A stretch of DNA of 64,000 nt from Patescibacteria group bacterium. GTDB lineage: Bacteria > Patescibacteriota > CPR2 > UBA1875 > CAIMLA01. The notes under the pieces are model-generated. The model searched no databases. It was not told the origin of the DNA and was given only the letters and a program-made list of their open reading frames with translations. Every line of letters begins with the position of its first letter. The first letter of the stretch is position 1. The stretch is from contig JBGSPL010000002.1 of NCBI GenBank assembly GCA_041738615.1, positions 10,654-74,653 on the forward strand. Direction: 5' to 3'. The position numbers and the translations under genes are program-made. This document shows positions 4,379 to 33,712 of this stretch, piece by piece.

Positions 4379-4650
4379 ACTGTGGATAAGCCTGTGCAGA
4401 ACCCCAGTATTCAGTGGAAAAGGTTGCGACAATAAAAAGTATAAATTATGCTCACTAAACATGGTCCAGAAAGTTAGAAACAGTTTTTGCAAGAACCTTA
4501 CCCCCTGTTGTACAGCCCCAAAACTGTAAGATGGTTACAAAGATAAGCACAAAAAGCGGCTTATACGCAGAATACACAGCCCCTATTACTACGATTACTA
4601 ATATATAAATAAGAAATTATATACACGAGCCTGTGGAAAGGGAAAACAAA
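4379..4650. promoter_or_regulatory. Candidate oriC (dnaA-dnaN intergenic): DnaA box plus AT-rich unwinding element
   Basis: Perfect TGTGGATAA at 4381-4389. A degenerate TGTGGAAAG lies at about 4614. An AT-rich stretch runs 4588-4620 (ttactaatatataaataagaaattatata). Confidence 0.5.
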
Positions 4651-5748: not shown

Positions 5749-5764
5749 GGGAATACAGCGGAAA

Positions 5765-6844
5765 ATGCTGATTACAAAGTTACAACTTCAGAATTGGCGT
5801 AACCACGGCAAATTTAGTTTTGAGTTTGACGGGATTACGGTTCTTGTAGGCCCCAATGCTACAGGCAAGACAAACTTCCTAGAGGCGATTTATTACTTGG
5901 CCACAGGCAAGAGTTTTCGGGCTAAGGATGAAAGCCTCATCGGTTGGGATGAGCAATTTTCGCGAATCGAGGCGGATATTCAGAGAGAAGAAGGCTCAGA
6001 AAATCTACTGGTGGTGCTCGAAAATCAAGGGAGAACAGTAAAAACAGTGAAAATCAAAGAGCAAAAGGTGGCCTCGGCGAAGCTTTTGGGGCACCTGGGA
6101 GCCGTCCTTTTTACTCCTGAAGAGATTGAGCTTATTTCCACGCTGCCCGAGGCGCGCAGGCGCTACTTAAATATGATTATTAGCCAATCTGATCGGAAAT
6201 ATTCGTACTCGCTGATTCACTTTCGCCGTACTCTAGAGCAGCGCAATTCTCTCCTCAGGAGGATCTTCAACGGTGAGGCCAAGGAAGACGAGCTCGAGAT
6301 TTGGGATGGGCGGTTTGCTGAGTATAGCGAGCAGATTATTGCCGCGCGAGCTGGCTATGTGTCAGAGATCAACAAACACCTTACTGTACACTACCAAAGA
6401 CTCGCGGGGAATAAGCAGAAGCTGGAGCTTTTGTACATCCCAAGCATTGAGCCTACGCAGGGTTGGGCTGGCATCGTCACTAGGCTTACACAGAGCCGCC
6501 CCAGGGACATTTTGGCCCGAGTTACGACCATCGGCCCGCATCGTGATGATATGGGCTTCACACTCGACGGTAGGAACTTGCTGACTTTTGCCTCGCGCGG
6601 CGAGCTGAGGACTGTGATGTTGGCTCTAAAACTCGCAGAGGTAGATTTTCTGGAAAGCATCATGGGAGAACGCCCGGTGTTGTTACTCGATGACGTATTT
6701 AGTGAGCTCGACGAGAAGCGCCGAGATCTTCTCTCACAGGTATTCACCGAGCAGCAGACAATCATCACCACCACCGACCTAGATCATGTAAGCAAAAACA
6801 TTCTCGATAAAGCAAAGGTGATAAACTTGGGTTATGACAAATAA
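5765..6844 (+). CDS. recF: DNA replication and repair protein RecF
   Basis: Walker A GPNATGKTN, SMC-like signature, C-terminal LLLDDVFSELD. Confidence 0.9.
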   Translation: MLITKLQLQNWRNHGKFSFEFDGITVLVGPNATGKTNFLEAIYYLATGKSFRAKDESLIGWDEQFSRIEADIQREEGSENLLVVLENQGRTVKTVKIKEQKVASAKLLGHLGAVLFTPEEIELISTLPEARRRYLNMIISQSDRKYSYSLIHFRRTLEQRNSLLRRIFNGEAKEDELEIWDGRFAEYSEQIIAARAGYVSEINKHLTVHYQRLAGNKQKLELLYIPSIEPTQGWAGIVTRLTQSRPRDILARVTTIGPHRDDMGFTLDGRNLLTFASRGELRTVMLALKLAEVDFLESIMGERPVLLLDDVFSELDEKRRDLLSQVFTEQQTIITTTDLDHVSKNILDKAKVINLGYDK

Positions 6845-15220: not shown

Positions 15221-18058
15221 TTATTTCTGTCGTTTCTTTCCTTCCATTATATCCTTGATCTCTGCTACGGTGTCAGGTCTAAAGTTAGTAGCTCCAATCT
15301 CTGGATCTGTGGCGGCTTTGTACAGCTTGGTCATACGAGGAGCACCTTTTTTCTTTATCAGTTCGCTAGCCTGGAGGGGCGAAATATTAGAAGTGAACTC
15401 ATTTGCCAAGCCAGCCATGAGAACGTCTTGATCGCCTCCTGCTATGCTCCTGGTATCTAGCCCCCCATTTTTAATCTGATCGTTTTGGGCATCAACTTGG
15501 CCTCTCAGTTCTTTGGTTATTGGTTTGGCATAGTTTAATAGTCCACCAATTTCTGCCCCAGTAGATGCTGAAAGATCTCCATCTATCATCTTCTTTGCGG
15601 CCTTCCTTCTGAAGTCGGCAGTGACAGAATCGTTTTGACTACCAAAAATAAGTTCCTTGTGACTCTTGATGCCAAGGTTCTTCATGGCGTCACTCTTACC
15701 GATAAACTCATCAAATAGTCCCTGTGCACCCTGCTCGTTACCGTCTTTGTCAAGTACTGTGTTACCACCAAAGCGCTTCAATTCATTGGCATCCATGTCG
15801 AGTAGCCCTCGGCGCATTAGTTCTGTTGCCGCAGCCTCACGCGTATATTGGTCATGCTGTTTTCCTGTAAAAGACATAAGTTTTTCTTTTGAGGTACTTT
15901 CGTCGCCCATACCTGCGGCAGCATGGTGGGCTGCCACAGTTGCTACGTGGAGGTTATTTGCGGCCATTTGCCCTCTATTGCCGGCGACTCCTGTTGTGGC
16001 CCACGTAGAACCCGGGATGTTACTATTCGCGAGCTTATCCTGGAAGCCGAGCAGGTGGGCCTTGTCCTCTGCGGCTTGGTTCGCTCTTCTGTTTTCGAAA
16101 AAGCCCTTACCCTTACCAAGCATACGATTGACGGAGTACTTCCCTCCCACGCGGGTAGCTGCCCAGCCGGCACCTTTCAGGGCATTCCCCCCCGTAGCGC
16201 CCCAGAGTTTCTTGCCTGCGCCACTCCAGGATTTCATAATGCTGCCACCCCATTGCATAGGGAGAGTGGCAGCCATATATAGAGCAGCCGCAAAGATGAT
16301 TAGTCCTACCAAAGCACCCGTTCTGCCGGAAGAGCTGAAATCAGCAAGGGCAGCAGACGAGGTGAGGTCACTTGCTCCTTCATAACCGGCGCTGCTAGCT
16401 ATTAAGCCTCCGAGAGCAATGATTGCCATAGCGATCGGCCCCATGAACATCCACTTGAAGAATTCACTCCACCACTGCTTATACATATTGGCGGTGAATG
16501 GCATGATGTTTAGGATAAAGGCAAGCGGAGCTACTACTAGCAGGAAGCTAAGCATGACCATACGTATCAGAAGAGTAAAGAGTAGTACGATGCCACATGC
16601 GATGACTCCGAGCAGAATCACGATTACCATAATCAGTATGCCAAGGTTTGCTATAATGTCCCCCGTAGAGGGTGCGGATATGCTGAAGGAAGACAAAGTC
16701 CCTAGAATGTCTATGCCCCCAGCGAGACCTACGGCCTGGGCTTGTATCGCAGCGGTAAAGTCAAAAAAAAAGACTACGATAATCCAGCTAGCGTATGCCA
16801 TGACTATAGAAATGATGATACGGGGGATCATACGAGTAACGCCGTACTGCTCTAGGTTAATTTGCAGTACATTGGCAAAGGCAATAATAACGAGTGCCAT
16901 CACTAGCAGGGATAGTGCTACGTTCCTTACGCTGATCCATGGCCCCCGCATAGTTACCTCTTTGGCATTCCCGATATCTGCACCGACCTTGCCAACAACA
17001 AGGTCTGCAGTCCCAAGAAGCAAGGCATTGATTTGTTTCATGACAAACCCCAGGGTCGTTTCGACGCCGCTCATCACCCACTTGATAGCGTTGGAGATAG
17101 CCTTGTCTAGGGGGGAGTCAGTTTCTTGGGAAACAGTTATCCGAAACCCTGTGTACTTTTCGTCGGTATCAGGCAGTTGCTTACCGCCAATTGGAGATTT
17201 TGCCTCAGTGGTATCATTCTTGTCGGAAATTGTTACTTTTGCGTAGCCACCCTTTACGTAACTCAAGTGAAATGTTATTTCCCCAGTCAGAGTTGCAGTA
17301 CAGGAGATTTGGTCAGCTCCTCCACCCTTCATTTCTTTAGAGACGCAGTCGGCATGTTCAGAATATTTAAACTTTATCGTATAGTCGTCCTCGTAGATGC
17401 CTTTACCGCTGTTCATGGTTGGGATATCAAAAGACTGGAAATAGTATTTTCCACCTTCTTCATATACTTTCTTATTGCCAGTCGAGATCTTACCGCTCGT
17501 TTTGCTCCAAAGCTCGATCGTCCTGTCCTTCATTTGGACGGCATTGTTTTCGTTTACGCTGTCGTCAGGGATAAGCTGTCCTGTTATTTTGCCCTTTGTA
17601 ATAAGTTTTACTGGGGCCGACGCAACATCTTCGGGGTCGGAGATGGTAATTTTAACTGGCCTGCCGCCATTGCGATCTGTGTAAGTATAGGTACCGGTCA
17701 AGGGGTCCTCTGGGTCATATGCAATTATGGACCCCCATTGAGGGTTGGTTTTTTGTTCAAACTGCTCCACTAGCTGTTCATTAACATAACCATTTGAGCC
17801 GGCATTTGCCCAACCCTGGCTTAGAGCAGCGAGGCGCGGGCTTGTTATCGACAAAAACTTCGTGCCGCCACTAGGGCAATCAATTTCTTCTAGGCTGACC
17901 CAAACACAAGTAAAGCTTGATGAGCCGTCTGGAATCGCTGGTTCTTGCCCGGTGTTGTAAGTTTGAGCATGAGTAAAAAGCGGAAATACTAACGCAAACA
18001 ACAAAAAAGCACATATTTCTTTATAAAATACTGGCTTATTTGAAAACAACTTAGGCAC
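15221..18058 (-). CDS. VirB6/PrgH/TcpH-like polytopic T4SS channel protein (945 aa)
   Basis: Signal peptide, ~350 aa ectodomain, then 6 or more TM helices and a Gly/Ala-rich cytoplasmic tail. Position matches the Gram-positive T4SS gene order. Confidence 0.55.
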   Translation of the reverse strand: MPKLFSNKPVFYKEICAFLLFALVFPLFTHAQTYNTGQEPAIPDGSSSFTCVWVSLEEIDCPSGGTKFLSITSPRLAALSQGWANAGSNGYVNEQLVEQFEQKTNPQWGSIIAYDPEDPLTGTYTYTDRNGGRPVKITISDPEDVASAPVKLITKGKITGQLIPDDSVNENNAVQMKDRTIELWSKTSGKISTGNKKVYEEGGKYYFQSFDIPTMNSGKGIYEDDYTIKFKYSEHADCVSKEMKGGGADQISCTATLTGEITFHLSYVKGGYAKVTISDKNDTTEAKSPIGGKQLPDTDEKYTGFRITVSQETDSPLDKAISNAIKWVMSGVETTLGFVMKQINALLLGTADLVVGKVGADIGNAKEVTMRGPWISVRNVALSLLVMALVIIAFANVLQINLEQYGVTRMIPRIIISIVMAYASWIIVVFFFDFTAAIQAQAVGLAGGIDILGTLSSFSISAPSTGDIIANLGILIMVIVILLGVIACGIVLLFTLLIRMVMLSFLLVVAPLAFILNIMPFTANMYKQWWSEFFKWMFMGPIAMAIIALGGLIASSAGYEGASDLTSSAALADFSSSGRTGALVGLIIFAAALYMAATLPMQWGGSIMKSWSGAGKKLWGATGGNALKGAGWAATRVGGKYSVNRMLGKGKGFFENRRANQAAEDKAHLLGFQDKLANSNIPGSTWATTGVAGNRGQMAANNLHVATVAAHHAAAGMGDESTSKEKLMSFTGKQHDQYTREAAATELMRRGLLDMDANELKRFGGNTVLDKDGNEQGAQGLFDEFIGKSDAMKNLGIKSHKELIFGSQNDSVTADFRRKAAKKMIDGDLSASTGAEIGGLLNYAKPITKELRGQVDAQNDQIKNGGLDTRSIAGGDQDVLMAGLANEFTSNISPLQASELIKKKGAPRMTKLYKAATDPEIGATNFRPDTVAEIKDIMEGKKRQK

Positions 18059-18120
18059 CCTCCTTTGTTGAATTTATTATGAAGTATTTGATGAGCTCTT
18101 GCAAGGCTCAAAACGCGAAA

Positions 18121-18150
18121 GCGGCCACCACGGGATTCCGTGGTGGCCGC
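18121..18150. terminator. Perfect 13-bp-stem hairpin downstream of the high-GC ORF
   Basis: GCGGCCACCACGG gatt CCGTGGTGGCCGC, followed on the minus strand by a T-rich tract. Confidence 0.55.
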
Positions 18151-18171
18151 TAGGTGATGCCCGCGAAGCTG

Positions 18172-18618
18172 TTACTCGAGTATCTCTACCCATTTACCAT
18201 CGCGCTTTACGAGTGCCGAGATGCCGTGAGTCCCGTCAGCGCCGCTCCACTTGTAGACAGCCGTCGGTTCGTTGTCGACGGTGACGGTAATGCAGCGGAC
18301 CATGTCATCGGCGACCTGCTCGGCGAAACCGCCGGTGTAGAAGAAGTCCTGGATGTCGGTATCGGTCGCAGGGCGGAATTCCACGATTTCTGCGGTTGTG
18401 AATTCATGGATCTTCTGCCGTGCAAAAGGCTCGGCTTCTCGCAACAAAGCCTGCCTGTCGAGGGACTTCTTCGCCTCAGCGGCTTTGTTAGCACCAGCCT
18501 CGATTGCCTGGTTTGCCGTTTCTCCCGCTGGCTTCACGACTTCCTTGTAAAGGTAGGTCCCGAAGCCAAGTATGACGACTATGCCCACGAGGTAGACGAA
18601 CCACTTCGGGATCGCCAT
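18172..18618 (-). CDS. Hypothetical TM-anchored protein encoded in a ~60% GC islet inside the T4SS locus
   Basis: Probable start MAIPKWFVYLVGIVVILGF (TM helix) followed by a soluble domain. The plus-strand ORF 18154..18708 is judged a high-GC antisense artefact. Confidence 0.4.
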   Translation of the reverse strand: MAIPKWFVYLVGIVVILGFGTYLYKEVVKPAGETANQAIEAGANKAAEAKKSLDRQALLREAEPFARQKIHEFTTAEIVEFRPATDTDIQDFFYTGGFAEQVADDMVRCITVTVDNEPTAVYKWSGADGTHGISALVKRDGKWVEILE

Positions 18619-18837
18619 GGTTCCTCTGTGCTGGCTACCCGCAGGGCTTCCGTTCAAGTCGACCATGACAGCCTCCCTTGGTTTTGGCCCCCGCGGGGGC
18701 GGTGCTAGCGGACAATATACTTCCACGGCTACACATTTGTGAGCGCGTTGTTGCCTTGCTTGCCGCTATAATACAACAAAATTGGCGATATGGCAATGGT
18801 TTCTGTGAAGCCGGCAAACAAATTGATAAAATGAAAA

Positions 18838-18857
18838 AGCCGGCGAGCGCCGGCTTT
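18838..18857. terminator. Hairpin terminator after pilin gene 1 (minus) / bidirectional
   Basis: AAGCCGGC gagc GCCGGCTT, with TTTTTCATTTT on the minus strand. Confidence 0.55.
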
Positions 18858-18873
18858 AAAAGAGCAGAAGTGT

Positions 18874-19227
18874 TTAGTTAGTGATTACGCCACCTATGTT
18901 CTGGCGGATAAATCCAACGATGACGAACGATAGTAGGATCACTACAAGCCCGACGACTGCGTAAAGGATGGTACTCTTTGCGGCTTCGGCACGCTTCTCG
19001 TTGCCTGACGCAGTGATGTACTGTAGGCCGCCTACAATCAGGAAGAGCACAGCTACTACAGCCGAGAATCCTAGTACCCATCCGACGATGTCAGCAAGTA
19101 CCTTCCCGATAGTCAGTGAGCTGTCGTCCACTGTTATGGGAGTGATTGAGCTTGGTGTTTCTGCAAAGGCAGGGGTTGCTGCGAGTAGAGCGAAAGCAGC
19201 CAGGCTGATTTGATTTAGTTTTTTCAT
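18874..19227 (-). CDS. VirB2/TrbC-like T4SS pilin paralog 1
   Basis: Signal peptide plus two TM helices with a conserved GGLQYITASGNEKRAEAAKSTILYAVVGL core shared by all five paralogs. Confidence 0.7.
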   Translation of the reverse strand: MKKLNQISLAAFALLAATPAFAETPSSITPITVDDSSLTIGKVLADIVGWVLGFSAVVAVLFLIVGGLQYITASGNEKRAEAAKSTILYAVVGLVVILLSFVIVGFIRQNIGGVITN

Positions 19228-19255
19228 GTTTCCTCCGTTGTTTATATATTAACTT

Positions 19256-19642
19256 TTAGGACGCTTTTGTTATTGGTATCATGGCTTGAACTACTAGCTG
19301 CACTATCACATATGCTAGTAGTATTACTATAAGTCCCAGCACTGCGTAGGTCAAGGTTTGCTTGGCAGATTCTGCCTGCTTCTCGTTTCCTGCTGCTGTG
19401 ATGTACTGGATGCCGCCCCAAATGATGAAAAGAACTGCAATGGTTCCAGCAAATCCTAGTATCCAGGTTGTAATGTTGCTGATTATTTTGGCAAGGTCGG
19501 ACGTAGTTCCAGTCCCATCTGAGCCACAGGGTGTGATCTCACCGGTTACCCTGTTATACCCACATGCCGCCTGTGTTACTACTGGAGTAAGTGAAGTGAC
19601 ACCCCCGAGGGCAAGTAGCGACAATTTAGAGTTTAGTGACAT
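19256..19642 (-). CDS. VirB2/TrbC-like pilin paralog 2
   Basis: Core GGIQYITAAGNEKQAESAKQTLTYAVLGL. Confidence 0.7.
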   Translation of the reverse strand: MSLNSKLSLLALGGVTSLTPVVTQAACGYNRVTGEITPCGSDGTGTTSDLAKIISNITTWILGFAGTIAVLFIIWGGIQYITAAGNEKQAESAKQTLTYAVLGLIVILLAYVIVQLVVQAMIPITKAS

Positions 19643-19662
19643 GGTTTGTACCTCCTTATTGT

Positions 19663-20007
19663 TTAGTATGGCATCGAGCCGGAGAATACTGCACCAACAA
19701 AATCCCCAGCTATAATGTTTAATATTACGGTTGATAGTAGAACTGCAATTAATCCAATAATAGCATAAGTGAGGGTTTTTTTTGCATCCTCTAAACGTTT
19801 GGGGTTACCGGCAGAAGTCACTAGCTTCACGCCACCAATAACGATAAAGAGCACCGCTATAGCGCCGGCGATTCCCAGCAGCCAGGTACGAACAAATTTT
19901 AGAAATCCATCTAGGCTAGTGCCTTTGTATGTGTCTAGTTTGGCCGCGAAAGAGTAGCTGGGCATGGCTGCAACCGCAATATATAGCATTAGACTTAGCT
20001 TCTTCAT
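19663..20007 (-). CDS. VirB2/TrbC-like pilin paralog 3
   Basis: Core GGVKLVTSAGNPKRLEDAKKTLTYAIIGL. Confidence 0.7.
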   Translation of the reverse strand: MKKLSLMLYIAVAAMPSYSFAAKLDTYKGTSLDGFLKFVRTWLLGIAGAIAVLFIVIGGVKLVTSAGNPKRLEDAKKTLTYAIIGLIAVLLSTVILNIIAGDFVGAVFSGSMPY

Positions 20008-21182
20008 TATAATATCCCTCCACCAATTACCGATGCAAACAGTGAGACGATGAAGTACGAGAGGATAGTGATGAGTAATCCGATAATAGCTGCAGTTAGT
20101 ATCCCCTTTGCCTTGGTCGCCGTCTGTTCGTTTCCGTTAGATCCCATATAGGTAATCCCGCCCAAGATTATCATGATTGTGAATAGTGTTCCTACGATGG
20201 GTAGGAGGACATTATTCATAACATTCTTCACTACCTGTAATACCTCTTTCAGCTCTGTAATAGGTTTGTCGCAGGGTACGCCTGCCAGTATACCGTTGGT
20301 ATAGTAGGTTCCATCGCCTACGCCATCGCCGCACTTGGTCTCTGCATAGTCTGCAGTTTGCGTTTTTGCAGTAGCACTAGCAGAGGCCGGTCCGGAGTCG
20401 TCTTTGGGTGTGGCACCGCTACTACCGCCACTGTCACCACCATCACCACTGTCATCTTTGCCCGCATCAAGAACCTCACTGTCTTTTGGAGGAGTGTCGC
20501 CCTTTTTGCAGGATACTAGCTCTGGATTACTGAGGGTTCCAGTGTATTTGCAGCTATAGGTCGCACCAATGTCGGTGGACTTGGGGTCCCAAGCATAGTT
20601 TGAGTTAGAAAGACTTCTTCCCAGTAAAAGTGAACTTCCAGATGAAGGATTTACCCTATAAACCGTGGTCCCGGTGGAGGAATACTTCTCTAGCTTACCT
20701 TTGACTGGTCCCTTAACCTCTGGGATTGGGCAGACTGCGCAAGTACCCCCTCCCGATTTACTCCAGCTGTACACAACAAGATATCGTAAGCTCAGCTTGA
20801 AGGTTGGATTGCCACAGATAGTCTGATTAGTATATTGTTTTTGGCCTGTAGTACGAGCGTTGCCACCCAAGGACCCATTGGCTTCATAGGTAATCGTCCA
20901 TCCCACATCATTGATCTCAGGACTGTTACAGCGGTAGATTTTTTTTGTAAAGATAAAATACGACCCCTCTGTACGAGAATATATCGCACCATAGGATACG
21001 TTGCTCTTCGTTATCTTTACGACAACGTCACTTGAATTGTAACTATTTACAGGCACTTTAACAGTAACAGTGGTTTGTGTCATGACGGCGGCATTGCTTG
21101 AGCTTGGAGCCAAAATAAAACAAAACGCAATTGCAAAGTACAGCAAGATACGGTTTAGTTTTGCGTACTTTAATTCACCCAT
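20007..21182 (-). CDS. Pilin-fusion protein: ~300 aa Cys-containing beta-rich N-terminal domain, Gly/Ser/Asp linker, C-terminal VirB2-like pilin module
   Basis: C-terminus GGITYMGSNGNEQTATKAKGILTAAIIGL matches the pilin core. The N-terminal domain has a signal peptide and several Cys. Confidence 0.6.
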   Translation of the reverse strand: MGELKYAKLNRILLYFAIAFCFILAPSSSNAAVMTQTTVTVKVPVNSYNSSDVVVKITKSNVSYGAIYSRTEGSYFIFTKKIYRCNSPEINDVGWTITYEANGSLGGNARTTGQKQYTNQTICGNPTFKLSLRYLVVYSWSKSGGGTCAVCPIPEVKGPVKGKLEKYSSTGTTVYRVNPSSGSSLLLGRSLSNSNYAWDPKSTDIGATYSCKYTGTLSNPELVSCKKGDTPPKDSEVLDAGKDDSGDGGDSGGSSGATPKDDSGPASASATAKTQTADYAETKCGDGVGDGTYYTNGILAGVPCDKPITELKEVLQVVKNVMNNVLLPIVGTLFTIMIILGGITYMGSNGNEQTATKAKGILTAAIIGLLITILSYFIVSLFASVIGGGIL

Positions 21183-26326: not shown

Positions 26327-27075
26327 CTAACAGCTCAAAAGTTCGGTCAATGAGCGATAAGTGCCTGATATTTCCAGAGGTATTTCGTGATAGAGACCTT
26401 CTTTCCAGAATGTTTTGAAAGCCTGGCCGTCGCAACCTGAGGAGAGAAGGCGAAAATTGTCGTCCATAATTTCGATGGCGCTGCAGTTACTGAGCGCGAT
26501 AGCTACGCCAGATGTAGATTTCATCATTTCTTTTAGATCGTCTCGGCGGTCTGGTTCACTTATAAAGTGGGGACAAAGCAGAGCGTCAATAATTCCAAGA
26601 GCCACCACTTTTCTCAATGCAGCATCAGGGTCTTTGAACCTGCCAGAGTCCGAGTTACCATCGCGAAACCAGCAAATAGCACCAGCACTCAGTCCGGTCA
26701 TTAGTATCCCTTTCTCGTGTGCTTCCCTCAGGACCTTGTCTAACCCACATTGTCTCCAAACCTTTATCATCTTTGCCGTATTTCCACCGCCAACGTATAT
26801 GACGTCAGCACACATAACGCGCTTTCTCATCTCGGCAGGAGTCATTTCTTTATTGGGTAAGTATAAACAATCGGTAATGCAGCCAAGCTCCTGTCCAAAG
26901 TGTTTCTGAACGTCGGCGTAGTACTTCCTCTGATTTGTACTTGCTGTAGGTATAAAAAGAAGCTTCGGATTATTCTTTCCCGTAAGCTCGAGTATTTCTC
27001 TGTCTATCGACGTGGTTTCGTGCGGATGACCCGGTCTTCCTATCTCACCACCGCCTATAGCGACTATTCTACCCA
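26327..27075 (-). CDS. Peptidase S51 family (dipeptidase E / cyanophycinase-like)
   Basis: YVGGGNT and GLSAGA (Ser nucleophile) motifs. Probable GTG start. Confidence 0.65.
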
Positions 27076-27188
27076 CAACACATATCCATAACGACAACTT
27101 TAGCACGAATGTTTCGGCAACAAAACAGGGACTCAATCAAACGATTGAAAACGTGCACGGATTGCTGTATAATCAACGGGTTATTTAG

Positions 27189-27265
27189 GCGCCTGTAGCT
27201 CAGGGGATTAGAGCGTACGGTTGCGGTCCGTAAGGTCGGAGGTTCGATCCCTCCCAGGCGCACCA
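27189..27265 (+). tRNA. tRNA-Arg, anticodon GCG as read
   Basis: Cloverleaf: acceptor GCGCCTG/CAGGCGC; D-arm GCTC-AGGGGATTA-GAGC; anticodon stem TACGG/CCGTA with loop TTGCGGT; T-arm GGAGG-TTCGATC-CCTCC; encoded CCA. Confidence 0.7.
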
Positions 27266-27434
27266 CTTCGGATTTTGCTAACGTGTTCCGCGGATTGGCT
27301 AAGGCCAACCACTGCACACTTTCGCAAATCCTCGTTGTTCCGTGAAAATTACAAATTTCCACGGAAGGGAACGACGAGGGAACCGAAACATTCAAGGAAA
27401 AGTATATCGAAGTAGCATCAGCTATCGTTAACGT

Positions 27435-27523
27435 GGAGAGGTGCGAGAGTGGTTGAATCGAACGGTCTCGAACACCGTCATACCGCAAGGTATCGAGGGT
27501 TCGAATCCCTCCCTCTCCGCCAT
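27435..27523 (+). tRNA. tRNA-Ser (CGA), class II with long variable arm
   Basis: Acceptor GGAGAGG/CCTCTCC; anticodon loop CTCGAAC; long variable arm; GGTTCGAATCC T-loop; CCA. Confidence 0.85.
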
Positions 27524-27529
27524 AAAAAA

Positions 27530-27552
27530 AACCGGCCGTAGGCCGGGCTTTT
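27530..27552 (+). terminator. Rho-independent terminator after tRNA-Ser(CGA)
   Basis: CCGGCC gta GGCCGG followed by GCTTTTGTTATTT. Confidence 0.6.
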
Positions 27553-27557
27553 GTTAT

Positions 27558-28040
27558 TTACAGTCTGAACCACCGCATCAAAGTGTCTGCAATGTTCTCT
27601 GTGCGATTGCCTTCTTCGGGGATGTATTTCCCTATTGCTGCGCGAATTTTTACCGGATCTACATCACCAAGCATAATAGTAAGTTGTGGCAAATACTTCT
27701 TTTGAAAGATTATGTTCAACGAAGGGTGGTTCCGGTGTAGCAAGAACCAAAAGGAATACATTTCGTTATAGGGGTAGAAGCGAGTATCTATGTAAAGCCC
27801 AAGCTGTGAGAATCGGTAGGTTTTCTCGACAGGACTTTGCTGTTGGTACCAATACATAAAGCCGATGAGGACGACTATTATGGCAGCGCCATACCAATCT
27901 CCTGTGTACAGCGAGTATCCGATAACGCCCAAGAAAAATAAGCCGATTACTGCGTAGTATGCCGTAGAACGGGTATATTCTGGGTACTCTTTTGCCTTCC
28001 AGGCTACGAGTACGGTTTCTTTAGTGTCTTCCTCCGCCAT
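27558..28040 (-). CDS. Two-TM membrane protein with a PH-like C-terminal domain (hypothetical)
   Basis: Start MAEEDTKETV; two hydrophobic helices. The longer annotated ORF overlaps the rubrerythrin gene. Confidence 0.4.
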   Translation of the reverse strand: MAEEDTKETVLVAWKAKEYPEYTRSTAYYAVIGLFFLGVIGYSLYTGDWYGAAIIVVLIGFMYWYQQQSPVEKTYRFSQLGLYIDTRFYPYNEMYSFWFLLHRNHPSLNIIFQKKYLPQLTIMLGDVDPVKIRAAIGKYIPEEGNRTENIADTLMRWFRL

Positions 28041-28119
28041 GACTTCATTATACAAAGTATATTTGGAAAAGTAAAAGTTATAAAATGACCCACCTAGTGG
28101 TGGGTCATTCGGACTTTGT

Positions 28120-28701
28120 TTAGTAATTCTCGGAGAGGAGCTGATAGAAAGCTTGTGGGTGCTCACAGACTGGGCAAACTTTTGGTGGCTCGGTTCCTTC
28201 GTGGACGTATCCACATTCACGGCAGCACCACCACACTTTTTCGCCGCGCTTAAAGATCATGCCACTTTCCACAAGAGAAAGTAGTTTGGTGTATCTTTCC
28301 TCATGATGTGCCTCTGCCTCGGCAATATCGGTGAGTCGGTTGGAAATGATAGTGAGACCTTCCTCTTTGGCGACCTTAGCAAACTCTGGGTACATCTGGC
28401 TAGTCTCGAAGTGTTCACCGGCAATTGATGCCTTCAGGTTCTCTAGGGTCGTGTCCCAGACGTTTGGGACCTCTGTAGGAATTTGGATCGCAGGATAGTT
28501 CACGTCATTATTCTTGAGCTCCTGGATATGGCCCATGAGCATCTTGGCGTGAGTTTTTTCCTGGTTAGCAGTTTCCTCAAACACGCCAGCAATCTGTTCG
28601 TAACCTTCTTTGCGAGCAACCGATGCGTATATGGTGTAGCGATTGCGGGCTTGGCTTTCGCCAGCAAAAGCTTTGGCTAGATTCTCGATAGTTTTCTGCA
28701 T
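28120..28701 (-). CDS. rbr: Rubrerythrin
   Basis: Ferritin-like diiron domain with E...E..H motifs, plus a C-terminal rubredoxin-like CxxC...CxxC. Confidence 0.9.
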   Translation of the reverse strand: MQKTIENLAKAFAGESQARNRYTIYASVARKEGYEQIAGVFEETANQEKTHAKMLMGHIQELKNNDVNYPAIQIPTEVPNVWDTTLENLKASIAGEHFETSQMYPEFAKVAKEEGLTIISNRLTDIAEAEAHHEERYTKLLSLVESGMIFKRGEKVWWCCRECGYVHEGTEPPKVCPVCEHPQAFYQLLSENY

Positions 28702-28710
28702 ATCTTCTCC

Positions 28711-29139
28711 TTATGCTTTAATGATTTGTTCGCGCCTGTTCTCAGCGTCAGGGGTACCACTTAGGTTATCCCAAAGGCCGTGTACGTTACAGTAAATCGT
28801 CACCAGGTAATCTTCACCCTCCGGGAGTCTAAAAGTAGCTCTAGGGGCCTCTCCTGCGCTCAGGAACTTACGAAATGAGGTTGTGGCGGTGGCAAGTTCT
28901 ATCCACTCGATGTAATGCTCAGGCAACATTGGATGTTCCACAGTTCCCACGACTACTTCTACTTTACTGTCGAGAGCTGTAACCACCGGCACATGTTTCT
29001 CGTGACCCTCAGGGCCGTTGCTTGGTACGAGCAATACCATTGGTTCACCGCAGCATTTGAGTGTTCCGTGGCCTGCATCAAGCACGGAAACTATGTTTCC
29101 GCATTCCTCGCACTTGTAATAGTTTTTTCGTAATGCCAT
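28711..29139 (-). CDS. dfx: Desulfoferrodoxin-type superoxide reductase (2Fe-SOR)
   Basis: N-terminal desulforedoxin CxxC...CC. C-terminal SOR domain with His ligands and YCNVHGLW. Confidence 0.8.
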   Translation of the reverse strand: MALRKNYYKCEECGNIVSVLDAGHGTLKCCGEPMVLLVPSNGPEGHEKHVPVVTALDSKVEVVVGTVEHPMLPEHYIEWIELATATTSFRKFLSAGEAPRATFRLPEGEDYLVTIYCNVHGLWDNLSGTPDAENRREQIIKA

Positions 29140-29171
29140 TTCTACCTCGCTTTCCACTTCTATTTTAACAT

Positions 29172-29200
29172 AAGGGAGAAGAGGGTTGCCCCTCTTCTCC
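29172..29200. terminator. 12-bp perfect hairpin between the heliorhodopsin and SOR genes
   Basis: GGGAGAAGAGGG gttg CCCCTCTTCTCCC; weak T tract on the minus strand. Could be a terminator/attenuator or a processing site. Confidence 0.4.
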
Positions 29201-29220
29201 CTGTGATCAGATGTGGCTAA

Positions 29221-29982
29221 TTATCGTAGAGTTCCACCCCATACCTGCCAAGCAAGAAGCGCCTTGGCAACTAGTGAGAAGGTGATGTAAGCGTACTCAC
29301 CGTAGAGGTAATCCTGCCATTTACCAATCTTTTTGTATTGAAGAATCATATTTACCGAGAAGACGTTGAAGGCGATAAAAAGGCTCCAAAAGATTGCGTA
29401 GACAAAGTTAGGGACAGCATCTCCACCGGCGGCAAGGGCATTATAGAAATATAGTCCCATCACTACCCATGGCATCGCCCCGGCAAAACAACCGAAAAGA
29501 TACGCAGTCCAGTCGGTCTTCTTGGTGGTTTGGTTGTGGACTTCCATCATCCAGCCAAAGAGAATCATGCAGGCATTTAGTGAGAAGATCAGAATTAAGG
29601 TAGATAAATCGTAGATACCACAAAGTATGGCAATCACCACGACCATCATCGAAGATGTGATAGCATACTCTGCCCAGCGAAATAGATTGATGCCCTTCTG
29701 AATCTGCTCTTCGTACTTTTTGCGCCATACGAAAGCATTACCGAGTAGAAATAGCCCAGAAAGCAGTAGAAATGAAGCCACGATAGGACCGAGGCGCCAC
29801 TGCGCAAAATTCGCGACTAGGGTGGTTGGCATTCCTGGAATATTACTGTTCTTGCCTAGGTAGCTAGTAGTAATTTGTGCGGCGCTGTCGTTTGAAATCG
29901 CCCACATTAGCACACCCTGTGCAAACAGTAGTACTCCGACTACAGAATTGTAGATCCAGAGATTATTTAGTTTCTTTTCCAT
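29221..29982 (-). CDS. Heliorhodopsin (seven-TM retinal protein, inverted topology)
   Basis: As recalled (not searched), extensive identity to heliorhodopsin 48C12. Examples: NLFRWAEYAITSSMMVVVIAILCGI, NACMILFGW, FGCFAGAMPW. The Schiff-base lysine sits in YAYITFSLVAKALLAWQVWGGTL. Confidence 0.85.
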   Translation of the reverse strand: MEKKLNNLWIYNSVVGVLLFAQGVLMWAISNDSAAQITTSYLGKNSNIPGMPTTLVANFAQWRLGPIVASFLLLSGLFLLGNAFVWRKKYEEQIQKGINLFRWAEYAITSSMMVVVIAILCGIYDLSTLILIFSLNACMILFGWMMEVHNQTTKKTDWTAYLFGCFAGAMPWVVMGLYFYNALAAGGDAVPNFVYAIFWSLFIAFNVFSVNMILQYKKIGKWQDYLYGEYAYITFSLVAKALLAWQVWGGTLR

Positions 29983-30056
29983 ATTTCCCCCCTTTCGATA
30001 TGTGTATAATACACCGATTTAAATAACAAAAAAATACCCGTTTCAGGTATTCTTTA

Positions 30057-30146
30057 TGGCGGAAGGGGTGGGATTCGAACCCACGATACCATTGCTGGTA
30101 TGACGGTTTTCAAGACCGTTCGATTCAACCGCTCTCGCACCCTTCC
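30057..30146 (-). tRNA. tRNA-Ser (TGA)
   Basis: Reverse complement folds as a class II tRNA with anticodon loop CTTGAAA; near-identical to tRNA-Ser(CGA) at 27435. Confidence 0.85.
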
Positions 30147-30275
30147 ACGTCGCAACACGTTATGGGTTTCGCAAGTCGGCTTTGCCGATTGCTGCACCTC
30201 TGTACTGTTGCTCCTTTCCCCTTAAATCCTTCGGATTTCGGGGGCCCCACGACGAAGTAATTCGATAGAAATATA

Positions 30276-30368
30276 TGGCGGAGAGAGAGGGATTCGAACC
30301 CTCGCGCCAGGTTGCCCCGGCCTACAGGTTTAGCAAACCCGCCCCTTCAGCCACTTGGGTACCTCTCC
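30276..30368 (-). tRNA. tRNA-Ser (GCT)
   Basis: Reverse complement GGAGAGGTACCCAAGTGGCTGAAGGGGCGGGTTTGCTAAACCTG...GGTTCGAATCCCTCTCTCTCCGCCA. Confidence 0.8.
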
Positions 30369-30451
30369 GCGAACGCAAATTATCTGACAATTTGCCGCTA
30401 AATTATAGCTGATTTGTGGCTAAATAACAAGTGAATCTTGGATTGTAGCTG

Positions 30452-31373: not shown

Positions 31374-33527
31374 TTACTTGGTCTCTGGCCACTTGCTAAT
31401 AATTAATGCTGCATCTTGGTCCATTGTTGACCAAATTGATTCCGTGACGAAAGGCATGAATGGATGAAGCAGCTTAAGAGATTCCAGCAAAACCGTATGG
31501 ATTGTGTACTGAGCAGCAAGTTTGCTTGATTCGTTATCACGAATTCTTACTTTGGTGTCTTCTATGCATAAGTCGCAGTAATCGTGCCAGAAAAAGTCGT
31601 AGAGAAGCTCAACTGCGTGCTGGAAGTCGTATTTGTTTAGGTAACGATCAACCTCTTTGGAGGTTTTATCCAGTTTTGCTAATATTTGCTTGTCTTCTTT
31701 GGTTAATTCTTTTTCAATTGTTTCACGTGAAACAATCTTGTAATCAGTAAGATTCATTTTAGTAAACTTACTCGCATTCCAGATTTTATTCACAAATCTT
31801 TGAGACATTAGTAAGGAGTCTTCGCTGAATTTCATATCTTGACCTTGGGCGACCTGCCAAAGCAGTCCGAAGCGAGTGGCATCCGTACCGTACTTATCGA
31901 TTAGAACCAGGGGGTCGACGCCCGTACCAAGCGATTTAGACATCCTTTTGCCTTCCGAGTTGAAAACTGTTGCATGGATGTATACGTCCTCGAAAGGGAT
32001 CTGACCGGTAAATTCTATCCCAGAGAAGATCATACGAGCCACCCAAAGATAGAGGATATCCCTAGCTGTAGATAGGAATGAGGTCGGATAAAATGTGGAT
32101 AAGTCAGGTGTCTTCTCCGGCCAGCCCAGAGTTGCGAAGGGCCACAGGGCACTGGAGAACCAAGTATCCAATACATCCTCGTCTCTTTTTAGCTTTGCAG
32201 AGCCGCATTCGTGACATTTAGGCGTTAGTTTAGGATCAAGTGCCCACTCTTTAGAAACAGTAATTTCACCACACTCGCAATACCAGGCTGGGATCTGGTG
32301 GCCCCACCAGATCTGACGTGATACGCACCAATCGCGAATGTTGTCCATCCAATCGAGGTAGACCTTTGTCCACTTGGCAGGGTGAAACTTTACTTTTCCA
32401 GAGCGAACAACCTCAATTGCAGGCTTTACAATTTCGTTCATCTTTACGAACCATTGTAGGGTAAGGAGCGGTTCTATCACGGTATGACAGCGGTAGCAAT
32501 GGCCAACTGCGTGAGTGTGTGGTTCGGCTTTTACTAGCCATTTACCCTCTTCAAGAAGTATGATTATGGCTTCGCGTACCTCATATCTGTCTTTCCCCAC
32601 AAATTGCTCGCCGGCTTCAGGGGTCATGTTTCCTTCGAGGTCGATTACGACAATCTTCTCTAGGTTGTGACGCTCGCCAATCTCAAAGTCGTTTGGATCA
32701 TGTGCCGGAGTGACTTTTACAGCTCCAGTTCCAAATTTTGCATCAACATAATCATCTGCAATAATCGGGATTTTGCGGCCAAGGATAGGCAAAATAGCAA
32801 AATTTCCGATTACTGATTTGTATCGTTTATCATTTGGGTTTACAGCTATGGCCGTATCTCCGAGCATTGTCTCTGGGCGGGTAGTGGCTACTACAATTTC
32901 ACCACCGCCCTCTATTTCGTACCGAATGTGCCACAAATTGTCCTGACGTTCTTCGTGCTCAACTTCTAGGTCAGAAAGTGACGTTCCACAGCGTGGGCAC
33001 CAGTTTGTAATTCTGTTTCCTCGGTAAAGATAACCCTTCTCGTAATAGTGGACAAAAGTTTCGATCACGGCCTTGGAGTAGCCCTCGTCCATAGTGAAAC
33101 GAGTGTGATCCCAGTCGCAACTACATCCCATAGTTTTCAGTTGCCCTAGGATTCGTGGTTCGTACTCCTCTTTCCACTTCCAGGTTTCCTTAATAAAATT
33201 CTCTCGGCCTAGGTCAAAACGAGTTTTACCCTTGGCAGCAAGTTTTTGTTCCACTTTGTTCTGGGTAGCAATGCCGGCGTGATCGGTGCCAGGAACCCAC
33301 AGAGTCTCGTTTCCCTTCATACGATTCCAGCGTACCAGAACATCCTGAACAGTATTGTTTAGAGCATGACCCATGTGTAGTACCCCAGTAACATTGGGTG
33401 GTGGGATTGTGACAACGAATGGTTTACTACCACCGCGCGAAACTGGCTTGAAATAGCCATTATCCGCCCATGACTGATAAATACCTGCTTCCATTTCCTT
33501 CGGTTTAAAGTTCTTGGGCATCTCCAT
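31374..33527 (-). CDS. valS: Valine--tRNA ligase (short form lacking the long C-terminal coiled coil)
   Basis: PPPNVTGVLHMGHAL (HIGH region) and KMSKS. Start MEMPKN with an AAGGAG SD at 33535-33540; the longer annotated N-terminus overlaps the T-box leader. Confidence 0.9.
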   Translation of the reverse strand: MEMPKNFKPKEMEAGIYQSWADNGYFKPVSRGGSKPFVVTIPPPNVTGVLHMGHALNNTVQDVLVRWNRMKGNETLWVPGTDHAGIATQNKVEQKLAAKGKTRFDLGRENFIKETWKWKEEYEPRILGQLKTMGCSCDWDHTRFTMDEGYSKAVIETFVHYYEKGYLYRGNRITNWCPRCGTSLSDLEVEHEERQDNLWHIRYEIEGGGEIVVATTRPETMLGDTAIAVNPNDKRYKSVIGNFAILPILGRKIPIIADDYVDAKFGTGAVKVTPAHDPNDFEIGERHNLEKIVVIDLEGNMTPEAGEQFVGKDRYEVREAIIILLEEGKWLVKAEPHTHAVGHCYRCHTVIEPLLTLQWFVKMNEIVKPAIEVVRSGKVKFHPAKWTKVYLDWMDNIRDWCVSRQIWWGHQIPAWYCECGEITVSKEWALDPKLTPKCHECGSAKLKRDEDVLDTWFSSALWPFATLGWPEKTPDLSTFYPTSFLSTARDILYLWVARMIFSGIEFTGQIPFEDVYIHATVFNSEGKRMSKSLGTGVDPLVLIDKYGTDATRFGLLWQVAQGQDMKFSEDSLLMSQRFVNKIWNASKFTKMNLTDYKIVSRETIEKELTKEDKQILAKLDKTSKEVDRYLNKYDFQHAVELLYDFFWHDYCDLCIEDTKVRIRDNESSKLAAQYTIHTVLLESLKLLHPFMPFVTESIWSTMDQDAALIISKWPETK
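31719..31734. promoter_or_regulatory. Second perfect parS site, located within the 3' part of valS
   Basis: Exact TGTTTCACGTGAAACA, 395 bp from the first. Confidence 0.75.
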
Positions 33528-33544
33528 GCTAGTGCTCCTTTTAT

Positions 33545-33712
33545 TTAAAAAAAATCCCCACTGCTTAGGGGCTCTCGCGAGCGGTACCACCCTAATTCTG
33601 TGCGGATACTTACTTTCCTGCTATTACGGGCTTACCCGTCTAGGTCTACTTTGCCTTTGCAAGGGCATTTCTGCTAGAAACTTACTGGTGACTGGCCAGC
33701 TCAAACGTTTAT
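33545..33712 (-). promoter_or_regulatory. T-box riboswitch leader of valS
   Basis: Reverse complement of 33579-33597 is AATTAGGGTGGTACCGCTC, a 17/19 match to the T-box consensus. A GC hairpin plus a T8 terminator lies at 33547-33575, then the SD. Confidence 0.7.

Follow-up and report, generated by a model that had tools for sequence, protein, structure and literature searches.

Organization of the locus

The window, which is the whole stretch of DNA analyzed in the present work (64 kb), comes from a Saccharibacteria (TM7)/CPR bacterium, in agreement with an earlier assignment of the organism as CPR-type. Four minus-strand protein genes fill the 2534 bp between a tRNA-Ser(CGA) gene and a tRNA-Ser(TGA) gene, and the content that a sequence-only reading of this DNA had proposed for the 2.5-kb segment, namely a protein with two transmembrane helices (the 2-TM protein), a rubrerythrin, a desulfoferrodoxin and a heliorhodopsin, is corroborated by Pfam matches and an AlphaFold model. 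The cassette lies about 25 kb from dnaA, with dnaA, dnaN and recF at 3-6.8 kb in the window. One flank carries a T4SS pilin cluster, HSP20, a CDF transporter and PilB, the other carries TPR, ValRS, TsaD, FemAB, Mur ligase and DHH genes, and both are syntenic with L081, L086, L090, L091, L092 and L173. An S51 peptidase gene adjoining tRNA-Arg is peculiar to the window; none of the relatives compared has it. The features of the cassette and its borders are listed below.

27145-27173, plus strand: sigma-70-like predicted promoter TTGAAA-17-TATAAT of the tRNA-Arg/tRNA-Ser(CGA) operon (11/12 consensus match)
27189-27265, plus strand: tRNA-Arg(GCG) (ARAGORN; Rfam, 64 bits)
27266-27434, plus strand: hairpin-rich spacer of 169 nt between tRNA-Arg and tRNA-Ser(CGA), homologous to the L173 and L091 spacers
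27435-27522, plus strand: tRNA-Ser(CGA), left bracket (ARAGORN, Rfam)
27532-27546, unstranded: predicted bidirectional intrinsic terminator, 6 G-C pairs, T runs on both strands (motif scan)
27558-28040, minus strand: 160-aa membrane protein, the 2-TM gene (AlphaFold model)
28047-28075, minus strand: promoter-like site TTTACT-17-TATAAT for the 2-TM gene (motif scan)
28083-28110, minus strand: predicted intrinsic terminator 3' of rubrerythrin (12-bp stem and T tail)
28120-28701, minus strand: rubrerythrin, rbr (PF02915, 1e-33; PF21349, 6e-11)
28711-29139, minus strand: desulfoferrodoxin, dfx, a 2Fe superoxide reductase (PF06397, 3e-15; PF01880, 4e-18)
29162-29170, minus strand: putative extended -10 element TGTTAAAAT upstream of dfx (conservation)
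29173-29202, minus strand: 13-bp perfect hairpin 3' of heliorhodopsin, terminator-like (repeat and motif scans)
29221-29982, minus strand: heliorhodopsin, 253 aa (PF18761, 2e-87)
30006-30031, minus strand: putative heliorhodopsin promoter region TTGTTA ... TG-TATTAT (conservation only)
30029-30055, minus strand: predicted terminator downstream of tRNA-Ser(TGA) (motif scan)
30057-30146, minus strand: tRNA-Ser(TGA), right bracket (ARAGORN, Rfam)
30276-30368, minus strand: tRNA-Ser(GCT), first gene of the GCT-TGA operon (ARAGORN, Rfam)
30402-30430, minus strand: predicted promoter TTGTTA-17-TATAAT of the tRNA-Ser(GCT)/(TGA) operon (10/12 match)

Flanking tRNA operons

The plus-strand tRNA-Ser(CGA) and minus-strand tRNA-Ser(TGA) genes had been described as a pair of inverted repeats, and this description holds: both genes are identified by ARAGORN and Rfam, and they align with 79 of 90 positions identical (88%), the inverted repeats comprising 54 nt at 91% identity and 45 nt at 87%. 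The similarity ends within a few bases of the tRNA ends, and the longest exact run common to the two genes is 18 nt. The likeness exists because the genes encode homologous isoacceptors charged by the same synthetase, and for the same reason a chance test of the repeat is not really applicable; unrelated bacterial and phage tRNA-Ser genes are already about 80-82% identical to them. Identity between the CGA and TGA isoacceptors (84-89%) is lower than that between orthologous tRNAs (91-100%), with tRNA-Ser(CGA) 98-100% identical to its L091 and L092 orthologues and tRNA-Ser(TGA) 91-100% identical to its own. Because orthologues are closer than paralogues, there is no sign of exchange (concerted evolution) between the tRNA-Ser copies.

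The flanking tRNA pairs are flipped in place between relatives. Because one pair is flipped, the tRNA-Ser genes are direct repeats in L081, L091 and L092; in L081 and L092 the homologous promoter moves along with the pair, and repeat searches produced no convincing inverted repeats that would explain the flips. The 169-nt spacer matches the spacers of the relatives with an nhmmer E-value of 6e-41, and RNAalifold predicts 47 pairs, 5 of them with compensatory changes, from an alignment of only three sequences; an Rfam search of the cassette and the tRNA spacers returned no family beyond the tRNAs and their antisense artefacts. The motif scan predicts that the bidirectional terminator at 27532-27546 closes both the tRNA-Arg/Ser(CGA) operon and the 2-TM gene.

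Rubrerythrin, desulfoferrodoxin and the membrane protein

The rubrerythrin covers the PF02915 profile from end to end (positions 1-137 of 137), with the paired ExxH motifs (E-K-T-H and E-A-H-H) of a di-iron four-helix bundle, and its C-terminus carries a rubredoxin-like CxxC...CxxC pattern that reads C-R-E-C ... C-P-V-C in the translation. It is found at the same position in six relatives, at 80-95% identity, and the hairpin that follows it has counterparts in L081, L173 and L090. The dfx gene lies 9 nt upstream of rbr, and the residues of both iron centres of its product are invariant in the alignment: Cys10, Cys13, Cys29 and Cys30 in the desulforedoxin-like FeCys4 centre I, and Glu47-Lys48-His49 (the E-K-H-x-P motif), His69, His75, Cys117 and His120 in the Fe(His)4Cys centre II. 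Among the relatives compared, dfx is found only in the clade of the window; close relatives of the protein are very few, the next ones being about 50% identical. Searches for a rubredoxin, an NADH:rubredoxin oxidoreductase and a PerR-type regulator found none within the 64-kb window.

The sequence TGnTAAAAT precedes dfx in the window, L081, L173 and L090, and TGTTAAAAT precedes rbr itself in L091; the extended -10 element before dfx is, on this comparison, probably the ancestral rubrerythrin promoter. The 2-TM protein, which has neither a Pfam family nor a PDB sequence relative, is modelled by AlphaFold as an N-terminal strand, two TM helices and a PH-like beta-sandwich, and the promoter-like site of its gene is confined to the heliorhodopsin-bearing clade.

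Heliorhodopsin

The heliorhodopsin matches the whole of the PF18761 profile (positions 1-242 of 242) and the PDB entries 6IS6 (1e-58) and 6SU3 (7e-53). Its retinal (Schiff-base) lysine in TM7 lies in S236-L-V-A-K240, which aligns with SLVAK in TaHeR, and its TM3 counterion lies in R102-W-A-E105-Y, which aligns with RWFEY; both are invariant in 10 of 10 Saccharibacteria heliorhodopsins. The His23/His80(82) pair, which has been discussed as a proton-accepting group and is not strictly defining, is replaced by leucine at both positions (L19 and L79) in all 10 aligned sequences. The end-to-end homology to 6IS6 suggests an inverted membrane topology, with the N-terminus inside. No blh or crt retinal-synthesis gene is present among the scanned window ORFs; rhodopsin-bearing Saccharibacteria have been reported to lack blh, and they probably take up retinal (PMC9296517). 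The cassette contains no transducer, kinase or regulator, and no conserved small partner gene lies downstream of heliorhodopsin across its slots.

The putative promoter region of the gene contains TAAATCG(G)TGTATTATA, which also occurs in L090, and a consensus scan gave no call there. The hairpin 3' of the gene is present in all four genomes that have the heliorhodopsin-dfx-rbr arrangement, with a T run in L090 and L173; in the window the T tail is weak, and in both the window and L081 the hairpin is a weak terminator. Because the U tract of the window hairpin is poor, transcription may continue past it into dfx-rbr.

Comparison with related genomes

A comparison of the locus across relatives, which the sequence-only reading had proposed as a check, shows that the presence of heliorhodopsin and dfx varies and that orientation is constant in the seven genomes of the comparative set, on which the polarity of events was assigned by parsimony. 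The order and spacing of heliorhodopsin-dfx-rbr are kept in four species-level lineages (the window, L081, L086/L173 and L090), and marker genes group all four genomes with this arrangement as one clade. A ValRS search of genome contigs gave mostly distant phyla among the at least 600 matches listed, together with three short Saccharibacteria or Patescibacteria contigs; ValRS identity to the window is 79-80% for L091 and L092 (BLASTP).

In L091 and L092 the gene order is TPR, tRNA-Ser GCT and TGA, rbr, the 2-TM gene, tRNA Arg and Ser CGA, PilB. The gap between rbr and the 2-TM gene is 2-4 nt, which makes a tight operon, and rubrerythrin probably had the 2-TM protein as its original operon partner. 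Neither heliorhodopsin nor dfx occurs at this tRNA-bracketed site, and the heliorhodopsin of these genomes lies between AspRS and SMC (L085 is on the L092 contig, and L082 is matched to L091). A third heliorhodopsin slot, FtsA/AlaRS, is found in L088 and L175. The window heliorhodopsin is 83-87% identical to the copies at other sites in sister genomes, and the AspRS-SMC and FtsA-AlaRS slot genes were not found in the window by tblastn. Heliorhodopsin is a nomadic single gene in this bacterial family, with at least three chromosomal slots.

One relative, L090, has a second heliorhodopsin allele type in the same slot, which groups at 100% bootstrap with L174, a locus from a rice-root iron-plaque study, and shares indels with it. 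A single insertion is therefore too simple a history for the slot, and repeated recruitment of heliorhodopsin to it would argue for selection on adjacency. Among the matches listed, 80 other metagenomic heliorhodopsin loci (579 kb; seven Saccharibacteria-like and 73 distant) served as a background, and Dfx or Rbr was near heliorhodopsin in none of them.

Origin of the cassette

The best explanation, which is considered probable, is that the locus is ordinary origin-proximal core chromosome with two additions in one subclade, and that it is neither mobile nor invertible. Two tRNA operons, Ser(GCT)-Ser(TGA) and Arg(GCG)-Ser(CGA), each with its own predicted promoter and terminator, would long have bracketed an operon of rbr and the gene for the PH-like protein. 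In one subclade dfx would have entered the gap that separates rbr from the rubrerythrin promoter (TGnTAAAAT), giving a dfx-rbr operon whose products could convert superoxide to H2O2 and the H2O2 to water, and a self-contained heliorhodopsin unit, with its own putative promoter and terminator hairpin, would have been placed directly upstream of dfx-rbr; the subclade with both additions would comprise the window, L081, L086/L173 and L090. Motif scans and conservation suggest these transcription units, and parsimony points to addition rather than loss, the formal alternative being that heliorhodopsin and dfx were lost in the L091/L092 lineage and then re-inserted elsewhere.

A genomic island integrated in a tRNA-Ser gene, with the four genes arriving as a block, would account for the tRNA borders of the cassette, for the lack of heliorhodopsin and dfx at the L091 and L092 site, for the scarcity of close Dfx relatives and for the S51 peptidase gene that only the window has beside tRNA-Arg. 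Such an origin, which the sequence-only reading had raised, is nevertheless very improbable, because ORF and Pfam scans of the window, which extends at least 10 kb around the cassette, found no integrase or recombinase, and because a tRNA 3'-end direct repeat is absent, the brackets being two complete, different isoacceptors with orthologues in the relatives. The sole direct repeat beyond chance-size matches (12-19 nt) is that between the 3' ends of the adjacent tRNA-Ser(TGA) and tRNA-Ser(GCT). GC content shows no shift (0.44-0.49 in the cassette and 0.43-0.50 in the flanks), searches of viral, phage and plasmid collections gave matches at the tRNA level only, plus one distant heliorhodopsin, and the identity of heliorhodopsin to the sister-genome copies fits intragenomic relocation or within-family exchange. 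What survives of the island is a lineage-specific addition of heliorhodopsin and dfx beside a tRNA gene; the mobile block does not, since both L091 and L092 have rbr and the 2-TM gene as a fixed feature between the same tRNAs. The locus therefore resembles tRNA-targeted integrative islands in having variable gene content next to tRNA genes, but differs from them in lacking an integrase, att direct repeats and a compositional shift, and in the conservation of the segment core.

Even less credence can be given to the companion claim of an invertible cassette, whose 2.5 kb would flip when the tRNA-Ser(CGA) gene recombines with the inverted tRNA-Ser(TGA) copy. The two stretches of inverted repeat speak for it, as does a shared end point of the L081 and L090 MAG contigs, which both break off at one and the same base within tRNA-Ser(CGA), perhaps through ambiguous assembly. 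However, the protein genes face the same way with respect to ValRS and PilB in each of the seven genomes, an outcome that the sequence-only reading had itself named as contrary to its claim, and uninterrupted identity between the copies does not exceed 18 nt, while efficient RecA recombination in E. coli needs about 23-27 bp. In three relatives the tRNA-Ser genes are direct rather than inverted, their sequences carry no exchange signal, and no invertase gene was found in the window scans.

Heliorhodopsin and oxidative stress

The adjacency of heliorhodopsin to enzymes that detoxify reactive oxygen species (ROS) makes a functional coupling possible. In one form of coupling, heliorhodopsin would act as a light sensor that raises the expression or activity of the superoxide reductase and rubrerythrin next to it (or of the PH-like protein), either through direct contact between the proteins or because transcription reads through, so that ROS defence anticipates photo-oxidative stress. 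Several observations are in its favour: the order and spacing retained in four lineages, the two distinct allele types in the same slot, the weak hairpin in the window and L081, and the intact retinal-binding Lys and Glu counterion. A precedent exists in a heliorhodopsin that binds glutamine synthetase, encoded by the gene beside it, and regulates that enzyme (PMC9529153), and redox genes have been reported to be enriched near heliorhodopsins (PMC8612252), an idea extended to CPR bacteria in a later study (PMC9166423). The light-gated module is nonetheless unlikely. The heliorhodopsin gene comes with a promoter-like region and a terminator hairpin of its own, with dfx-rbr apparently on the older rubrerythrin promoter; in sister lineages rbr stays at the site and heliorhodopsin lies at AspRS/SMC or FtsA/AlaRS; the 80 other heliorhodopsin loci among the matches listed have no Dfx or Rbr nearby; and the cassette lacks a transducer, kinase or regulator, with no retinal-synthesis gene in the window. 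Retention is weak evidence because gene order is generally sticky in small genomes. Somewhat less likely again is the evolutionary version, in which heliorhodopsin was recruited upstream of dfx-rbr, possibly twice with two allele types, to couple light with ROS detoxification in these epibionts, which are sensitive to oxygen; this could operate through binding of Dfx, Rbr or the PH-like protein, or through light-dependent read-through past the leaky hairpin.

Photolyase is one known partner of heliorhodopsin. In the literature searched, the sole partner was glutamine synthetase, in Actinobacteria bacterium IMCC26103 (PMC9529153), where, as here, heliorhodopsin lies beside the gene for a soluble enzyme; there, however, both belong to one operon and their binding has been measured, whereas here a hairpin and a separate predicted promoter precede dfx. 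Adjacency to oxidative-stress genes was described by Bulzu et al. (2021), who found heliorhodopsin neighbourhoods enriched in redox and two-component genes, with catalase, peroxidase, thioredoxin and glyoxalase (PMC8612252); the present locus differs in having anaerobe-type Dfx and Rbr, in lacking a histidine kinase or response regulator, and in being confined to one small clade. The Saccharimonadia/CPR heliorhodopsins of Chiriac et al. (2022) belong to the same family, with SLVAK as the most common motif, and in the available part of that text a role in mitigating oxidative stress is suggested from the genome-wide co-occurrence of redox enzymes, with the heliorhodopsin-dfx-rbr locus unmentioned there (PMC9166423). 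A full-text literature search for heliorhodopsin and superoxide reductase gave one unrelated review only.

Desulfovibrio and Clostridium have desulfoferrodoxin/rubrerythrin loci of the kind that anaerobes use against oxidative stress. The chemistry here would be the same as at the Clostridioides difficile rubrerythrin locus (bioRxiv 10.1101/2024.09.17.613384), from superoxide through H2O2 to water. In contrast to the anaerobe loci, the 64-kb window contains no rubredoxin, NADH:rubredoxin oxidoreductase or PerR-type regulator, dfx appears to have been inserted behind an existing rbr promoter, and the probable ancestral partner of rbr is a PH-like membrane protein.

A link between heliorhodopsin and oxidative stress has already been proposed in print, with CPR bacteria included (PMC8612252, PMC9166423), and the heliorhodopsin-Dfx-Rbr adjacency lends it weak, clade-limited support. 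Because heliorhodopsin is a self-contained relocating unit in Saccharibacteria, caution is needed in reading function from a single neighbourhood, and as the evidence stands the pairing is anecdotal, drawn from a single small clade. A role of heliorhodopsins in oxidative stress has so far been argued from loose neighbourhood statistics only. The locus offers a compact and specific candidate pairing, of heliorhodopsin with superoxide reductase and rubrerythrin, in a genome nearly devoid of regulators. If the coupling is real, it would supply a first concrete effector pair for the role in photo-oxidative stress that has been proposed for heliorhodopsins.

Gene content and chromosomal setting

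The interval between tRNA-Ser(CGA) and tRNA-Ser(TGA) holds four protein genes, all on the minus strand, and each of the four tRNA genes detected in the window by ARAGORN, with which Rfam agrees, lies at this locus:

27189-27265 (+), tRNA-Arg(GCG), ARAGORN and Rfam
27435-27522 (+), tRNA-Ser(CGA), ARAGORN and Rfam
27558-28040 (-), 160-aa two-TM protein (2TM), without a Pfam family
28120-28701 (-), rubrerythrin (Rbr), PF02915 and rubredoxin-like PF21349
28711-29139 (-), desulfoferrodoxin (Dfx), PF06397 and PF01880
29221-29982 (-), heliorhodopsin (HeR), PF18761, E 2e-87
30057-30146 (-), tRNA-Ser(TGA), ARAGORN and Rfam
30276-30368 (-), tRNA-Ser(GCT), ARAGORN and Rfam

The bracketing tRNA-Ser genes match at 79 of 90 positions (88%) and are detected as inverted repeats. 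Given these tRNA calls, the gene identities from Pfam and the inverted match, the observation made in the sequence-only reading, that a HeR, Dfx, Rbr and 2TM cassette lies between inverted tRNA-Ser genes, is correct in every particular.

The genes dnaA, dnaN and recF are present at 3008-6844, so the replication-origin region falls inside the window, about 25 kb from the cassette. The window also encodes a T4SS pilin cluster, HSP20, a CDF transporter, PilB, ValRS, TsaD, FemAB, a Mur ligase, PNPase, FtsK, RecA and LexA; the setting of the cassette is housekeeping chromosome near the origin. Among the matches listed, the nearest relatives of ValRS and HeR are from Saccharibacteria and Patescibacteria MAGs. 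Pfam scans of the window found no integrase, transposase, rubredoxin or PerR-like regulator, nor a retinal-synthesis gene, a search for which the sequence-only reading had proposed.

Comparison with related genomes

The locus was retrieved from six further genomes by exact-protein look-ups.

Layouts of the locus in the window and on contigs of related genomes (L numbers), drawn with ValRS on the plus strand; percentages are identities
Window: TPR(-), Ser-GCT(+), Ser-TGA(+), HeR, Dfx, Rbr, 2TM (all +), Ser-CGA(-), Arg(-), S51 peptidase, PilB
L081 (ValRS and HeR 94%): the window's gene set, with the GCT/TGA pair on the opposite strand
L173/L086 (HeR 89%): as the window, minus S51
L090 (ValRS 85%, HeR 79%): as the window up to the contig end
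L091 and L092 (ValRS 80% and 79%): TPR, tRNA pair, Rbr, 2TM, tRNA pair, PilB

By the identities of TsaD, FemAB, Mur ligase, 2TM and ValRS, one clade unites L081, L173 and L090 with the window and leaves out L091 and L092. In the latter two, HeR and Dfx are both missing from between the tRNA pairs, and a word-indexed search, as far as its sensitivity goes, also found no Dfx on their large contigs. By parsimony, the ancestral locus would have been [tRNA pair]-P-rbr-2TM-[tRNA pair], and dfx and HeR would then have been gained in one subclade. The intergenic space beside these tRNAs took in insertions: HeR, dfx and, in the window only, a peptidase gene of family S51 (cyanophycinase/dipeptidase E; 26327-27136, minus strand) which sits between tRNA-Arg and PilB and is absent from that position in L173, L091 and L092.

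The HeR of the L092 contig (locus L085) lies 180 kb off, between AspRS and SMC, a slot that also holds HeR in L082-84, L087 and L174, while a third slot, FtsA/AlaRS, is occupied in L088, L089 and L175. At L085, a pyrimidine-dimer DNA glycosylase gene (PF03013, 9657-9986) directly precedes HeR, and UvrB and UvrA (17074-20765) lie 6-9 kb downstream of it, a distinct light-damage-related context for the same HeR family.

The HeR of L090 (13435-14196, dfx-rbr slot) represents another allele type, recognisable by indels and a C-terminal ILRG that also occur in that of L174 (8001-8762, SMC slot), with which it groups at 100% bootstrap. The region upstream of HeR in L090 matches that of the window, and housekeeping markers place L090 within the window's clade; the combination points to either allelic replacement of a resident HeR by recombination or a second recruitment to the slot. 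The ValRS of L173 (5476-7599) and L086 (6330-8453), in the same position as that of the window (31374-33590), is only 48-49% identical to it, with neighbours at 72-89%, and looks like an in-place swap for a foreign ValRS.

Island and inversion readings

Two readings of the cassette, both proposed from the tRNA bracket, fail. An island integrated at a tRNA gene is rejected on the flat GC level across the locus, the lack of an integrase and of a far-end direct repeat (besides short chance-size matches, the only direct repeats are the adjacent TGA/GCT tRNA 3' ends), and the fixation of the segment core, rbr and 2TM, between the same tRNAs in relatives; nothing related to the cassette was found in viral contigs, phages or plasmids. 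An invertible cassette is likewise rejected, because the comparison across genomes that had been suggested as its check shows a single orientation, with protein genes inverted in none of the seven genomes (the window and six others). The longest uninterrupted CGA-TGA identity in a pairwise alignment is 18 nt, which is short for homologous recombination. CGA orthologues in relatives are 98-100% identical and TGA orthologues 91-100%, against 82-92% for CGA versus TGA in the same or different genomes, so the two copies give no indication of gene conversion. Their likeness is nothing special: tRNA-Ser genes from Rhizobium, from Shinella and from jumbo phages are already about 80-82% identical to those of the cassette.

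What has inverted in place between relatives is whole tRNA pairs, with every flanking protein gene keeping its orientation. The pair sites and the copies of a hairpin-rich spacer element of about 170-206 nt are as follows:

Window 30057-30430, GCT/TGA pair
Window 27145-27522, Arg/CGA pair
L081 9616-9876, GCT/TGA pair, flipped
L092 13084-13280, GCT/TGA pair, flipped
L091 14852-15036, Arg/CGA pair, flipped
Window 27266-27434 (+), spacer element
L173 11748-11952 (-), spacer element
L091 13353-13524 (+), spacer element
L173 8618-8737, weaker copy of the spacer element
L086 9472-9591, weaker copy of the spacer element

The GCT promoter travels with the flipped pair and the post-TGA terminator stays behind, so that transcripts of the pair would run on into the TPR gene in L081 and L092. 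Such a pattern cannot arise by recombination of one tRNA-Ser copy with another, and inverted repeats flanking the flipped pairs were looked for and not found. The spacer element lies between Arg and Ser(CGA) in the window and L173 and between Ser(GCT) and Ser(TGA) in L091, and is missing wherever the tRNA spacers are 3-78 nt. Its copies are homologous (nhmmer E 1e-41 to 1e-48), RNAalifold, run on only 3 sequences, predicts 47 pairs, of which 5 show compensatory changes, and no Rfam family matched; possible roles are a stable RNA made from the spacer or a structure used in processing. The independent MAG contigs L081 (at 12511) and L090 (at 15905) both end at the identical nucleotide within tRNA-Ser(CGA), just past the anticodon at the start of the 18-nt stretch common to tRNA-Ser(TGA); the coincidence reflects an assembly-graph artefact or else heterogeneity in the population.

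Transcription signals

Transcription units were assigned at motif level. For each tRNA pair a strong sigma-70-like promoter is predicted, as is a terminator. In all four clade genomes, a hairpin 3' of HeR is followed by an extended -10, TGnTAAAAT, before dfx, which is placed 9-20 nt upstream of rbr; in L091, TGTTAAAAT stands before rbr at the corresponding position, and dfx therefore appears to have been inserted just downstream of the original rbr promoter. HeR would have arrived as a unit separate from this insertion, and the sequence upstream of it, TAAATCG(G)TGTATTATA, is common to the window and L090. In the window the T tail of the post-HeR hairpin is poor, which may allow a degree of read-through. 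In this clade, rbr and 2TM are separated by a terminator and a TATAAT promoter; in L091 and L092, 2TM starts 2-4 nt past Rbr, a spacing that makes them a predicted long-standing operon and hints at a common role for both products.

Predicted protein activity

HeR, Dfx and Rbr look functional, with key residues intact. HeR aligns end to end with TaHeR, the heliorhodopsin of PDB 6IS6 (E 1e-58), and retains the Glu counterion E105 and the SLVAK lysine K240. Leu occupies positions 19 and 79, invariantly in 10 aligned Saccharibacteria sequences, in place of His23 and His80/82 of studied heliorhodopsins, which are discussed as proton acceptors; the photochemistry may thus depart from that of 48C12, another studied heliorhodopsin, and TaHeR. 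Dfx retains the Cys4 centre I and the E-K-H...H...H...C..H centre II ligands, and Rbr carries two ExxH motifs and a CxxC...CxxC tail. For 2TM, a PH-like fold is confidently predicted atop a two-helix membrane anchor; its large family has no Pfam model, and a few members weakly match DUF5673 or DUF6232.

Dfx has diverged much more quickly than its neighbours (identities of 85, 60 and 50%, against 94, 89 and 79% for HeR and 95, 89 and 81% for Rbr), and a word-indexed search returned very few close homologues. In the Dfx tree the Saccharibacteria copies cluster, L090 being basal with weak support, which fits one acquisition followed by rapid change.

Coupling of HeR to Dfx and Rbr

A functional coupling of HeR to Dfx and Rbr, which the sequence-only reading had proposed as a light/ROS link, is unlikely. 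The HeR-dfx-rbr order persists in four lineages among which the identity of housekeeping proteins is only 72-94%, and the slot was either refilled by recombination or filled twice, as the L090 allele type indicates; sister lineages, however, retain rbr at this site with HeR placed elsewhere, and the predicted promoters of HeR and dfx-rbr are separate. A heliorhodopsin is known to regulate the product of a neighbouring gene (PMC9529153), and photo-oxidative-stress sensing is a standing hypothesis for the family (PMC8612252) that a further report carries over to CPR bacteria (PMC9166423). Against this, among the matches listed, neither a Dfx nor an Rbr homologue lies near any of 80 other HeR loci (579 kb), no partner gene is conserved across the HeR slots, and no signalling component is present.

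Dfx-Rbr loci are textbook in anaerobes, and a literature search did not turn up this particular heliorhodopsin-dfx-rbr adjacency. Redox-gene neighbourhoods of heliorhodopsins have already been published (PMC8612252), as have the Saccharimonadia heliorhodopsins with their SLVAK motif and a proposed part in oxidative stress (PMC9166423). The present locus is a fresh instance of an already known pattern.
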